Assembly (NCBI GenBank): GCA_002011035.2
Contig: MTLY02000001.1
Coordinates: 224,001-288,000 of the forward strand
From: Candidatus Hecatella orcuttiae
GTDB taxonomy: Archaea > Thermoproteota > Bathyarchaeia > Hecatellales > Hecatellaceae
Length of the DNA: 64,000 nucleotides
Reading direction: 5' to 3'
The notes below the pieces were generated by a model. It ran no database searches. It was given only the letters and a program-made list of their open reading frames with translations, and was not told the origin of the DNA. Position numbers and translations under genes: made by a program. Positions 24,965 through 43,707 of the stretch are shown in pieces. Each line of letters begins with the position of its first letter. Positions within the stretch are counted from its first letter, which is position 1.

Positions 24965-26204
24965 GGGAAACACCTGCCTTGGGAGGGGCTAGCTTCTCCA
25001 CGTTTTCCTTTATCAGCGTTAAAGCCTTTTCTCTATCTTTCCAGCCTAGGAAGACCCTGACAGAGGAACTGATGGTCATGACCCCCAAGAGGTTAATGCC
25101 TTCGCGGGCCAGCGGCGCCACCACAGCGTTCACGATGCCGGGAGCCTTCTCCAACTCAGGGCCTGAAACGGTGATGAGGGCTATGGGGTCGAGGCTGTGG
25201 ACGGCCTTGGCTATCCTCCGGTTTTTTATCAGCTCATGCAGCCTCTGGAGGAGGTTGGAGGGATTCTCCACGTAGAGGAGAAGGGAGGGTGAAGCCAAAG
25301 TTAAGCCTAGAATCTTGGCGGAGGTGCTGGCGGCCTCGGAGAAGATCATCAAAAGCGTCTCAGGGGAGGAAACTTCCCACCCCACCAAGGATACCATGGA
25401 GAGAGGCTGATGGTGAAGGGCGACGGAAAGCCTTGTCTCCATAACCCCCTTGATGACGGTTCCCTTTGCGAGGTCTTCCTCCTCGAATCCCACCACCCTT
25501 AGGGTCAGGAAGTCTGTCTTGTATTTGAGGGATTTCGGGTGAAGAACCTTCGCGCCGGCGGTGCCCAAGGTGAACATTTCCTCCACGTCTAAGCTTTCGA
25601 TCATGGCGGGAGCCGTGACTTTCTTAGGGTCAGCCGACAGAACGCCTTGAACATCCTTGACGAAGACCACCTCATCGGAGCCGACGCAGCGACCTAGGAC
25701 CACGGCGGTGATGTCGCTTCCTCCCCGCCCCAGGGTTGTAACCTTCCCTTGAGGAGACAAACCTATGAAGCCGGGGACAACGACCACGTAGCCTTCCTCC
25801 AGCAGAGGTTTCACCTTCTCCAACACCGCCCGCTGAGTCTTCTCCAAATTCACCTCCGCCTGGCCGAATTCCGAGTCGGTGTAGATAGGCCACTGAGAGG
25901 ATGAGGGATCCAACCCCACAGCCTTCACCCCCTGAGATTTGATGGCGGTGGTCATGATGCGGGCGGCTGTCCTTTCACCCATGGAAAGAACCTCATCCAA
26001 ATCCTCTTTGGAGAGCCCGTTGGGGCTGGATTGGAGAGCGGTTTGGAGGAGACCGTCGGTGACGCCTGTGAGGGCTGAAACCACAACGAGAATTTTCTTT
26101 CCTTTTCTGGCCTCCGCAGCCACCTTTCCCGCTGCTTGAGCTATGTTTTCCGGAGTTGAAAGGCAAGAGCCTCCGAACTTAACCACAAGAGTTTTCACTG
26201 GCAT
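24957..26204 (-). CDS. lysC: Aspartate kinase (paralogue heading the aro operon)
   Basis: VKFGGS, VVVSA, SMGER, TTLGRGGSD, C-terminal ACT-like domains. Confidence 0.9.
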   Translation of the reverse strand: MPVKTLVVKFGGSCLSTPENIAQAAGKVAAEARKGKKILVVVSALTGVTDGLLQTALQSSPNGLSKEDLDEVLSMGERTAARIMTTAIKSQGVKAVGLDPSSSQWPIYTDSEFGQAEVNLEKTQRAVLEKVKPLLEEGYVVVVPGFIGLSPQGKVTTLGRGGSDITAVVLGRCVGSDEVVFVKDVQGVLSADPKKVTAPAMIESLDVEEMFTLGTAGAKVLHPKSLKYKTDFLTLRVVGFEEEDLAKGTVIKGVMETRLSVALHHQPLSMVSLVGWEVSSPETLLMIFSEAASTSAKILGLTLASPSLLLYVENPSNLLQRLHELIKNRRIAKAVHSLDPIALITVSGPELEKAPGIVNAVVAPLAREGINLLGVMTISSSVRVFLGWKDREKALTLIKENVEKLAPPKAGVSHG

Positions 26205-26269
26205 GGATGATACCTCCGAAAACTTTCACGGAAATAGTTTTGACGGATGGAGAGAATGGAGGGAAACGC

Positions 26270-26356
26270 CTAACAGCTACCCGAGTATTCATGCTTTGGC
26301 GAGGTTCGGGGATAAACACAAAGCCCCCTGAAAACGTGAACCCCCCTGGAATGCAC
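26270..26356 (-). CDS. Putative aro-operon leader peptide (28 aa, MHSRGVHVFRGLCVYPRTSPKHEYSGSC)
   Basis: Strong SD GGGGAGGT (26371-26364) 7 nt before GTG, just downstream of the predicted TSS; contains Phe, Tyr and Tyr codons. Confidence 0.5.
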   Translation of the reverse strand: MHSRGVHVFRGLCVYPRTSPKHEYSGSC

Positions 26357-26399
26357 CCGGTTAACCTCCCCAGTATTGCATAATAGGATTTACCATCTC

Positions 26400-26408
26400 T
26401 ATATAAAG
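26400..26408 (-). promoter_or_regulatory. TATA box of the lysC-asd-aro operon
   Basis: CTTTATATA on the minus strand; implies a TSS near 26377 and a leader of about 170 nt. Confidence 0.65.
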
Positions 26409-33696: not shown

Positions 33697-33814
33697 CGGC
33701 CGCAGCCTCCAACCTCTAAGGTTGTTGCGAAGAAAAATCTGGTAGGTAAGGAAAGAAAGAGCCGCAAGAGGAGGGGGGAGGGTAATCTAAAACTGCAGGA
33801 GGCTTTGGGAAGGT

Positions 33815-33838
33815 TTATCTCCAGTCCAGCTGGTGCAC
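33815..33838 (-). CDS. Putative trp leader peptide MHQLDWR (an alternative 22-aa Trp-containing uORF lies at 33787-33855)
   Basis: GTG CAC CAG CTG GAC TGG AGA TAA, preceded by GGTGGGGAG, in the leader of trpD. Confidence 0.45.
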   Translation of the reverse strand: MHQLDWR

Positions 33839-33880
33839 TCGCTCCCCACCGTCAAAACTACTGTATCAGAGAACAATTCT

Positions 33881-42288: not shown

Positions 42289-43707
42289 GTGTCCTTAGGA
42301 TTGAGGCTTGTGATGAAGTTCGGGGGAACGTCGCTGGCTGACGGAGACTGCATCAGCCGAGCCTGCGGCATTGTAGTCGACAGTTTGAAGGGGGGGAATA
42401 AGCTTGCGTTGGTGGTCTCAGCCATGGCTGATGTTACCGACGAGCTTGTCGAAGCTTGCAGGTCCGCTGAGGTGGGTAACAGAAGCTTCATCCGGAATAC
42501 CGTCGTGGAACTCCGTCAGCTACATGAGTCAGCCTGCAGGGTTTCAGTGACAGATAAGCACCTCAGAAACGAGGTTAAGAAAACCGTGGAAGAGTCTTTA
42601 AAGGAACTGGAAAACGTTTTAGAAGGAATCACCTACCTGAAAGAGGTAACTCCGAAAATCGAAGACTACGTCCTCTCCTTCGGTGAGAGGCTTTCGGCGC
42701 CAATAGTTTGGGGGGCCCTCCGCTCTAGGGGGGTGGATGCTGAATGGTTCACCGGAAAGGAGGCAGGAATAGTGACGGATTCCAATTTCGGAGACGCTAA
42801 GCCTCTGATGGAGATGACCGTCCACCAAGTGAAGGACCGACTTCAGAAACTGTATGAGGGCGGCATCGTCCCTGTGGTGGCCGGATTCATAGCCGCTGAC
42901 CAAGAGGGGCGAATTACGACCTTGGGTAGGGGAGGTTCAGACTACACCGCAACCATCTTGGGATGCGCGCTGGCTGTGGACGAAGTTTGGTTCTGGACGG
43001 ATGTGGACGGTTTGATGACCACAGACCCCGCGGTGGAGCCTTCCGCCAAGACCATTCGGAAGCTGTCCTATCAGGAAGCCTTGGAAATGGCCTTCTTCGG
43101 AGCTAAGGCTCTGCATCCTAAGGCGATAGAGCTGGTCATGGAGCGGGGAATCCCCCTCAGGATAAGAAACACCTTCAATCCTCAAGACCCAGGCACGGCC
43201 ATTAAGGCTGACCAAGAGGTGGAGCCCAGCTCGGTAGCTAAGGCTATCTCCCTCATCCCCAAGGTCGCCATCATCACCGTCAGCGGAGCGGGCATGGTGG
43301 GAGCGCCCAGCGTAGCCTCCAAGCTTTTCGAAGTCTTAGGGAGGAAGAAAGTTAATGTTCTCATGATCTCCCAAGGCTCATCGGAGGCCAACATATCCTT
43401 CGCCGTCCCTAGGGAAAGCCTAGATGAAGTCCTGAACACGTTGGAGCTCTCTTTGCTGGGAGGAAAGTACGTCCGCGAAATAAAGGCGGAGGAGGACGCC
43501 TGCATCGTAGCCTTGGTGGGAGCGGGCATGCAGGGAACCCCAGGCGTAGCCGCCCGCATATTCAGCGCCGTGGCTAGGGAGAAAATCAACATCAGAATGA
43601 TAGCTCAGGGTTCCTCGGAACTCAACATATCCTTCGTGGTTAAGGAAGCTGAAGGAGAAAAAACGGTCAGAGCCCTTCACAGGGAATTTAACCTAGGCGG
43701 GAAGTAA
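42289..43707 (+). CDS. lysC: Aspartate kinase (thr-cluster paralogue with two ACT domains)
   Basis: MKFGGTS, SFGERLS, TTLGRGGSD, QGSSE twice. Confidence 0.93.
   Translation: MSLGLRLVMKFGGTSLADGDCISRACGIVVDSLKGGNKLALVVSAMADVTDELVEACRSAEVGNRSFIRNTVVELRQLHESACRVSVTDKHLRNEVKKTVEESLKELENVLEGITYLKEVTPKIEDYVLSFGERLSAPIVWGALRSRGVDAEWFTGKEAGIVTDSNFGDAKPLMEMTVHQVKDRLQKLYEGGIVPVVAGFIAADQEGRITTLGRGGSDYTATILGCALAVDEVWFWTDVDGLMTTDPAVEPSAKTIRKLSYQEALEMAFFGAKALHPKAIELVMERGIPLRIRNTFNPQDPGTAIKADQEVEPSSVAKAISLIPKVAIITVSGAGMVGAPSVASKLFEVLGRKKVNVLMISQGSSEANISFAVPRESLDEVLNTLELSLLGGKYVREIKAEEDACIVALVGAGMQGTPGVAARIFSAVAREKINIRMIAQGSSELNISFVVKEAEGEKTVRALHREFNLGGK

Follow-up and report, generated by a model that had tools for sequence, protein, structure and literature searches.

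A conserved two-module leader reading frame before the lysC-aro operon of Candidatus Hecatella orcuttiae, and a possible prfB-like +1 frameshift at its phenylalanine and tyrosine codons

In bacteria, the control of amino-acid operons by leader peptides is textbook knowledge. Two +1 frameshift sites serve as further points of reference here: that of prfB, which reads CUU-UGA and has a Shine-Dalgarno (SD)-like motif 3 nt from the P-site codon, and that of Ty1, which reads CUU-AGG. We describe a leader that recalls these systems in an archaeon, Candidatus Hecatella orcuttiae of the class Bathyarchaeia. The stretch of DNA that was analysed, referred to as the window, spans 64,000 nt of contig MTLY02000001.1 (assembly GCA_002011035.2, positions 224,001 to 288,000), and all positions below are those of the window unless a contig is named. 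On its minus strand, a short upstream open reading frame (uORF) precedes lysC, the first gene of an operon that, judging from Pfam assignments, makes chorismate. The uORF contains two like modules, one ending in a Phe codon and the other in a Tyr codon, and an overlapping ORF in the +1 frame runs on to the start of lysC. From comparison with related leaders, we assign a probability of about 0.55 to the reading that translation of the leader is coupled to that of lysC by a +1 frameshift of the prfB kind, made when the Phe or Tyr codons are hungry.

In those passages of a 2016 review that treat starvation and leader ORFs (PMC5009743), it is stated that "no examples are known" of productive use of starvation-driven hungry-codon frameshifting; Ty1 is given as the example of a utilised shift at a slow-to-decode codon, and frameshifting in pheL seems incidental. 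The same passages describe how, in the ermC leader, ribosomes that change frame under ketolide induction go on translating into the spacer, by which ermC is switched on (PMC5009743). For Archaea, a 2021 review names only one reported programmed -1 frameshift, in fucA1 of Saccharolobus solfataricus (PMC8211752). Our own literature search, which covered few subscription journals, found no paper on archaeal leader-peptide attenuation, on a Bathyarchaeota uORF or on a frameshift in trpE.

The leader opens with a putative TATA box (aTCTTTATATA, 26410-26400, with TTTATATA at 26407-26400), recognised by its alignment with the conserved gcTTAAATA of relatives, which lies ~35 nt before the uORF SD. The SD itself, GGGGAGGT (26371-26364), stands 7 nt before the GTG start codon at 26356 and is complementary to the 3' end of the 16S rRNA, which reads GGATCACCTCCT. 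The 0-frame uORF of 28 codons, VHSRGVHVFRGLCVYPRTSPKHEYSGSC (26356-26270), ends at TAG (26272-26270), which is followed by GCGTTTCCCTCC and lies 65 nt before lysC. Its aromatic codons are Phe9 (TTC, 26332-26330), Tyr15 (TAT, 26314-26312) and Tyr24 (codon from 26287). The first two each close one of the modules, which repeat at an 18-nt period. Module 1 (26347-26330) consists of AGGGGG (26347-26342), 6 nt, GTT (26335-26333) and the Phe codon; module 2 (26329-26312) consists of AGGGGG (26329-26324), 6 nt, GTT (26317-26315) and the Tyr codon. As the 16S rRNA ends in GGATCACCTCCT, both AGGAGG and GGUGAU, a form found in related modules, can pair with it. The SD of lysC, GGAGG, is at 26217-26213. 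An earlier note, made from the letters of the window alone, had described the TATA box, the uORF with its SD and its three aromatic codons, the context of its TAG, a minigene and the lysC SD, and each is present on the minus strand where the note had placed it. The minigene, MQYWGG* (ATG CAA TAC TGG GGA GGT TAA, 26381-26361), had drawn attention for its adjacent Tyr and Trp codons. It is not conserved, relatives reading MKFK.. or MKLSAR* at that place, and we judge it to lie outside the system. A search of the gap before lysC against Rfam, carried to E 10, gave nothing at the gathering score and only chance-level matches (E > 4).

Conservation of the uORF was assessed in relatives. A lysC match was obtained in 41 relatives, in each of the 14 genomes that make up the family and in 223 of the 401 class genomes, and 70 loci were fetched. 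Leaders could be aligned from the TATA box to lysC at ten loci of the window's own family (f1, window included) and at seven of the sister family (f22), 17 in all. These 17 share the TATA box (gcTTAAATA), the SD, the start codon and a near-invariant core, NGG-RGG-N6-NUU-UUC-NGG-RGG-N6-NUU-UAY. Every one of them has a start-bearing ORF in the frame that reads TTC as Phe and TAY as Tyr, examples being VVSRRLYVFRRSCVYF, VLSRRSRLFRGTRIYIASHCTP and LESRRGRVFRGPRFYIVA. A degenerate pattern of the core occurred once in the 1.75-Mb genome of H. orcuttiae and 18 times in a metagenome collection, where a lysC-like VVKFGG motif followed 105-129 nt downstream in 16 of the 18. At 32 of 35 loci, NGG-RGG is preceded at a distance of exactly three codons by a start codon (GTG 25, ATG 4, TTG 3), and an SD-like match (at least 4 of 5 to GGAGG) stands upstream of the start at 31 of the 35. 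The Tyr codon is TAY and the codon before it NTT at 35/35 loci, and at the 31 that have the first unit the Phe codon is always TTC and again always preceded by NTT. The gap between the SD-like motif and the NTT of the Tyr module is 6 nt in 30 loci and 5 nt in the other 5. Among the related leaders, no conservation was found of Tyr24, of the His codon or of the CCCTCC that follows the stop.

It is this conservation, and not aromatic content, that exceeds chance. The best 10-codon stretch in the 300 nt before the window's lysC contains two aromatic codons, the mean of dinucleotide shuffles is 3.0 and 92% of the shuffles match the real leader; nor did the shuffle test find enrichment in the other 16 leaders of this type. 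By the earlier note's own yardstick of enrichment relative to random short ORFs the window fails, whereas conservation, the other yardstick that it named, is seen for the Phe and the first Tyr codon, at 17/17 loci. For its wider claim of a leader that senses aromatic amino acids, support comes from the conservation of these codons before a chorismate operon, not from enrichment; the pairing mechanism that it attached to the claim found no support. Aromatic content within that of shuffles would also suit a functionless chance ORF in a promoter region, as would a fold of the whole leader that is no better in energy than that of shuffles (z-score +0.82). The conservation of the ORF over two families and 18 metagenome contigs, 16 of them upstream of lysC, makes this explanation scarcely credible.

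The second conserved feature of the leader, which the earlier note does not contain, is an ORF in the +1 frame of the uORF that reaches the lysC start. In the window this ORF (26331-26179, minus strand), taken from the Phe/Tyr site, crosses the spacer, the lysC SD and the lysC ATG (26204) before its stop, TAA at 26181-26179; the frame is open from 26409 and includes an internal GTG at 26319. At all 17 genome loci, the +1 frame is open for 28-44 codons from the Tyr codon and stops between -21 and +23 nt of the lysC start; in the -1 frame, a stop comes after 1-47 codons. When genome and metagenome loci are taken together, the spacer is open to the lysC start at 33/33 loci in the +1 frame, at 3/33 in the -1 frame and at 0/33 in the 0 frame; for shuffled spacers, the mean probability of an open frame was 0.28. 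The 33 loci are non-independent through kinship, yet the spacers of most lineages cannot be aligned (47-62% identity). At many loci, the +1 stop overlaps the lysC start as ATGA, GTGA or TTGGTAG. Between close pairs of loci, indels in the spacer are either absent or 9 and 3 nt long, none of them frame-breaking, and substitutions are spread evenly over the codon positions (6/9/5 and 11/8/11). As substitutions are even and frame-breaking indels absent, the pattern suggests that being translated matters for the spacer and that its peptide sequence does not.

At 7 of the 17 loci, no ATG, GTG or TTG occurs in the +1 frame up to and including the Tyr site, and at 5 the whole ORF is without one; the frame is often shut by a stop 1-4 codons before the core. 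These counts bear on the explanation that two overlapping ORFs have separate starts, the long ORF being initiated by itself (at GTG 26319 in the window or at a non-canonical codon elsewhere) and bringing ribosomes to lysC, with the uORF only modulating this initiation by occupancy of the site. Candidate starts do exist: in the window and in relatives L002, L004 and L006 the second GGRGG is followed after 4 nt by a GTG, in L115 and L117 an ATG or TTG overlaps the uORF start, and families f16 and f26 have a GTG or ATG inside the core in the frame of lysC. The position of the GTG, however, is elsewhere occupied by GTA, ATT, ATC, GTT, GCG, GCC, AAG, GAG or ACT, and at 14 of the 34 trpE loci described below no start is possible. 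A ribosome stalled on the uORF would moreover block such a start, which is the wrong direction of control for a biosynthetic operon. Together with the startless lysC leaders, this makes separate starts quite unlikely.

A related module is found before trpE. This gene was located in 172 of the 401 class genomes, and with 40 further upstream regions fetched, 50 loci were available in total. In those families whose trp operon begins with trpE, the sequence ahead of the gene shows an SD followed by ATG-(RGG NAU)-NNN-NUU-UGG, as in ATG AGG GAT CGC GTT TGG and ATG GGT GAT TCA CTT TGG. Among 11 loci examined, trpE lies in the +1 frame of the uORF at all nine that bear the module; here, the +1 frame is open through the whole gene and the -1 frame stops within ~30 codons. 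Over the 50 loci (trpE upstream regions L189-L238), the Trp module with a TrpE signature in its +1 frame was found at 34, NTT-TGG being a fixed part of the search pattern that found them. At 26 of these 34 loci, there is no canonical start upstream in the +1 frame, which is often closed by the TGA of an ATGA. At 14, no ATG, GTG or TTG occurs before the conserved TrpE motif LES.EG, some 40 codons on; as no start codon precedes this motif, these 14 trpE genes cannot start conventionally.

In families f16 and f26, lysC itself is in the +1 frame of a two-module uORF with TTC and TAY (in f26 also TGG), the modules reading GGTGAC-TGC-GTT-TTC-GGTGAT-GGC-GTT-TAT. At the loci concerned (L018, L133 and L134 in f16; L128, L143 and L149 in f26), the lysC frame is open for 135-210 nt upstream of the conserved N-terminus, through the two-module uORF, and in f16 a start codon is absent near the usual N-terminus of lysC. 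For f16, this implies either that 50-60 poorly conserved residues extend the protein or that ribosomes enter by frameshift. Judged by eye, the distance from the P-site NUU to the full SD is nearly equal in all three forms of the module, 1-2 bases closer than a start codon is to its SD. What sequence comparison shows is thus the uORF with its modules, an often startless +1 ORF ending where lysC begins, and the equivalent Trp module fused to trpE.

The earlier note had regarded the lysC leader as one member of a system shared with the trp operon. That a shared system exists is indicated by the related Trp-codon module before trpE across the class; the window's own trp leader differs in detail. 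This leader (33697-33880, minus strand) contains the uORF GTG CAC CAG CTG GAC TGG AGA TAA (VHQLDWR*), of which L172, a relative within the family, keeps the form ..QQDWS*. Overlapping VHQLDWR* in the -1 frame is an ORF of 52 codons, startless in its first half, that ends as GTGA on the start of trpD. The trp leader of L172 has a like arrangement with a TTGA overlap. The one match to the Trp module pattern in the genome of H. orcuttiae lies inside a long coding frame and was taken as chance.

Another explanation for the repeated units of the lysC leader is that GGRGG-N7-TTTWC in tandem forms an RNA or DNA site for a regulatory protein or RNA, with the ORFs incidental. Conservation at the nucleotide level, a TTC that is never TTT, invariant third positions in the uORF frame and the 18-nt period of the repeat are all what such a site would predict. 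It leaves unaccounted for the set of start codons at a fixed distance, the SD, a +1 frame open over unalignable spacers and the stop-start overlaps, as well as the replacement of the key codon by TGG at trpE. There is also no match in Rfam, and the small gene that neighbours the leader in relatives encodes an Arcadin-1 homologue and not a regulator. We consider a binding site of this kind very improbable.

Under the +1 frameshift reading, the 257 nt ahead of lysC would be a translated leader by which ribosomes sense Phe and Tyr. They would start at GTG 26356, 7 nt from its SD, and meet two identical modules, each composed of AGGGGG, 6 nt and GUU followed by UUC (Phe) or UAU (Tyr). With charged tRNA plentiful, they would remain in frame and stop at TAG 26272, short of lysC by 65 nt. 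When Phe-tRNA or Tyr-tRNA is scarce, the A site would stand empty and the P-site tRNA on NUU could slip +1 onto UUU, which is possible because the aromatic codons begin with U. The shifted ribosome would read the +1 frame over the spacer into the region of the lysC start and stop at 26181-26179. On arrival it would open or occupy the lysC initiation region and re-initiate (translational coupling), giving more expression of lysC and the aro genes; shifted ribosomes might perhaps also protect the transcript. Control would run in the right direction, as scarce Phe or Tyr would give more shift and more enzyme. The regulatory logic fits as well, with a Trp codon at the trp genes and Phe and Tyr codons at the common pathway. 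We infer that the change of frame is a ribosomal +1 slip, that starvation is its driver and that arrival at lysC raises expression.

The likeness to prfB is extensive. Both have a short 0-frame ORF with an early stop, the 0 frame being closed in each of the 33 spacers, and a continuing ORF in the +1 frame. A start for this ORF is lacking at or before the Tyr site in 7/17 lysC leaders and before the LES.EG motif at 14/34 trpE loci; the window itself has GTG 26319 in that frame. Both have an SD-like motif upstream at a fixed distance, here AGGGGG, and a P-site NUU followed by U, so that the tRNA can re-pair on UUU. In both, the slow A-site codon would report the level of the pathway's own product. 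Unlike in prfB, the A-site codon of the leaders is a sense codon (UUC, UAY or UGG) and not a stop, and charged tRNA would be what is sensed; the SD-like motif lies 6 nt from the P-site codon (or is GGUGAU plus 3 nt); the +1 ORF of the window is a connector ending at the lysC start and not an enzyme; and the host is archaeal.

In having a slow A-site codon at which a P-site NUU tRNA would slip +1, the leader also resembles the hungry-codon shifts of Gallant and of Ty1 (CUU-AGG-C), as the 2016 review's passages on them present these (PMC5009743); unlike those shifts, the leader has a conserved site, and this stands in front of the biosynthetic genes to which its codons correspond. As in ermC, leader ribosomes that have changed frame would read into the spacer and permit initiation downstream. 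In ermC, the trigger is a ribosome-bound antibiotic and a hairpin is unfolded, whereas leaders of the window's type have no conserved hairpin. With ordinary stop-start translational coupling, the leader shares the ends of the form ATGA, GTGA or TTGGTAG that the +1 ORF makes at the lysC start in many relatives. It departs from the usual case in that the upstream ORF frequently has no start of its own, and in that the stop in the window lies 23 nt inside lysC.

The attenuators of trpL, pheL and hisL are the remaining comparison, and with it comes the explanation of an ordinary stalling leader peptide, in which pauses at the Phe and Tyr codons alter RNA folding or transcription-translation coupling in favour of more translation or transcription of lysC and no frameshift takes place. 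Like these attenuators, the window's leader is a short ORF with an SD, a start codon and end-product codons before a biosynthetic operon, and the conserved uORF with cognate codons speaks for stalling. Unlike them, its conserved codons are a single Phe and the first Tyr, unclustered, and neither a terminator nor alternative hairpins were found. Over the 17 loci, neither significant nor conserved structure was seen between the Tyr codon and lysC (median z -0.1; +0.5 for the window). No terminator-like site and no run of five or more T lie within the window's leader, the only terminator-like site (26441-26425) being upstream of the TATA box. The pairing of CCCTCC and TTTCCG with the lysC SD, which the earlier note had offered as the switch, is not conserved and shows no predicted response to the position of the ribosome. 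With the ribosome modelled by masking its footprint in the window, the unpaired fraction of the lysC SD region is 0.40 when free, 0.39 and 0.33 with the ribosome at the Phe and Tyr codons and 0.37 with it at the stop, and there is no trend across the 17 loci for these three positions. Stalling would also leave the +1 ORF, open at 33/33 loci, unaccounted for.

Leaders in other families of the class also speak for stalling. Their leader peptides before lysC end in runs such as FFSFDYYFYYFN, YYYYYYYCFF and FFDFFYYYFYFE, with up to 9 of 10 codons aromatic, at the same place before lysC as the window's leader (loci L012-L015, L022, L032-L034 and L118-L148). Among 54 loci linked to aro genes, the top 10-codon stretch of the sense strand has at least 6 aromatic codons at 28 (antisense strand: 1/54), and the shuffle fraction is at most 0.01 at 26. 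A hairpin adjoins the run at 31/31 loci with Phe/Tyr runs, starting between 3 nt before and 5 nt after the uORF stop and ending a few bases short of the lysC SD; the z-scores have a median of -2.9 and are below -2 at 25 of the 31, and T4-5 follows at some. RNAalifold on 18 of these loci gave 10 pairs, 3 of them with compensatory changes. In the largest family, an upstream TTCGAAGC box by the uORF start can, by eye, pair with GCTTCGA just before the run. In having Phe/Tyr runs followed by a hairpin and sometimes a T-run, these leaders look like classical attenuators of the trpL, pheL and hisL kind, here in archaea. Leader peptides with Phe and Tyr seem to be general in the class, the window's type being a different and leaner version. 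For this leaner type, the missing structure, the steady accessibility of the lysC SD and the unexplained +1 ORF leave stalling without a frameshift unlikely.

A number of observations weigh against the +1 frameshift reading. In the window, the +1-frame GTG at 26319 follows AGGGGG by 4 nt, with the like in three relatives, and independent initiation there is possible for that reason. Since the SD of lysC is itself good, there is no obvious need for coupling, and the +1 stop of the window lies inside lysC by 23 nt and not in an overlap of the ATGA type. With a spacing of 6 nt to the P-site codon, against 3 nt in prfB, the SD-like motif may have a different role, and when GUU re-pairs as UUU its first position is mismatched. 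Inspected by eye, the alignments show core variation at +1-frame third positions that already begins upstream of the Phe site, which a slip at the Phe or Tyr codon fails to explain. The startless ORF of the window's trp leader lies in the -1 frame and has no slippery site, so that another route into such frames may exist. Finally, the families with Phe/Tyr runs and hairpins show no systematically open +1 ORF.

On the minus strand, the trp genes (trpD-C-F-B-A-E-G, 33696-27092) are followed by a peroxiredoxin gene (27025-26462), a gap of 257 nt and a nine-gene lysC-aro cluster. Its first gene, lysC, encodes an aspartokinase (26204-24957; Pfam). The others, likewise assigned with Pfam, lie within 24973-17248: asd, ADH synthase (ADHS, DeoC family), DHQ synthase II (DHQSII), aroD and aroE, and at the end of the block a GHMP-type shikimate kinase, EPSP synthase and chorismate synthase. 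The linkage lysC-(asd)-ADHS-DHQSII is kept in most of 65 loci compared across the class. In the archaeal ADHS/DHQS-II route, chorismate synthesis starts from aspartate semialdehyde, so that an aspartokinase at the head of the operon makes sense. The best named relatives of lysC are mostly metagenome-assembled genomes of Bathyarchaeota/Bathyarchaeia, at 35-41% identity, in a scan dominated by generic aspartokinases. A second aspartokinase-like frame on the plus strand (42661-43653; G000:C1:266661-267653), open for 474 codons and 32% identical to lysC, is possibly the aspartokinase for the Lys, Thr and Met branches.

Directly 3' of the peroxiredoxin gene, at 26441-26415 on the minus strand, lies the hairpin GAGGAACCTCTTTCCTC and, next to it, TTTCTTTTTT; the two look like a bacterial terminator, although the genome is archaeal. 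As this terminator-like hairpin with its T-run sits upstream of the leader's TATA box, the leader appears to begin its own transcript. In relatives (L002-L008, L005 and L010), the gene next to the lysC leader is instead a divergent small gene, the Arcadin-1 homologue mentioned above (~115 residues; Pfam PF18653, E 3e-9). It was considered as a regulator of the leader and rejected upon this identification; in H. orcuttiae, the homologue is located elsewhere (C2:46839-47147).

Contigs from two other public runs have zero differences and zero gaps over 26100-26366, so that the G-runs and reading frames of the leader are not assembly errors. Two 16S rRNA 3' ends in the assembly (C2 near 466,500 and C3 near 600) differ slightly just before the shared GGATCACCTCCT, which points to two rRNA operons or else to a degree of assembly contamination, the stated value being 4.25%. 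At 591-712 on the minus strand, a match of 122 nt to the Rfam tRNA model (45.7 bits), not reported by ARAGORN, is probably an intron-bearing tRNA gene, which would fit an archaeon.

Taken across the class, we see an even chance that Bathyarchaeia control Trp and common aromatic synthesis by a prfB-like +1 frameshift in which a sense codon for the end product serves as the slow codon. UGG would have this role before trpE, and UUC and UAY before lysC-aro, and the enzyme gene or the coupled connector would be read only when charged tRNA is scarce. If the frameshift reading is true, these leaders would join hungry-ribosome attenuation with autoregulatory frameshifting of the prfB type in a single sensor of charged tRNA. 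They would then also be without precedent, both as a programmed frameshift that senses amino acids and, within Archaea, as one in the +1 direction. As trpE has no start codon in its own frame at 14 of the 34 loci, gene callers will truncate or split it or treat it as broken, and metabolic reconstructions of these uncultured archaea could be misled as a result.

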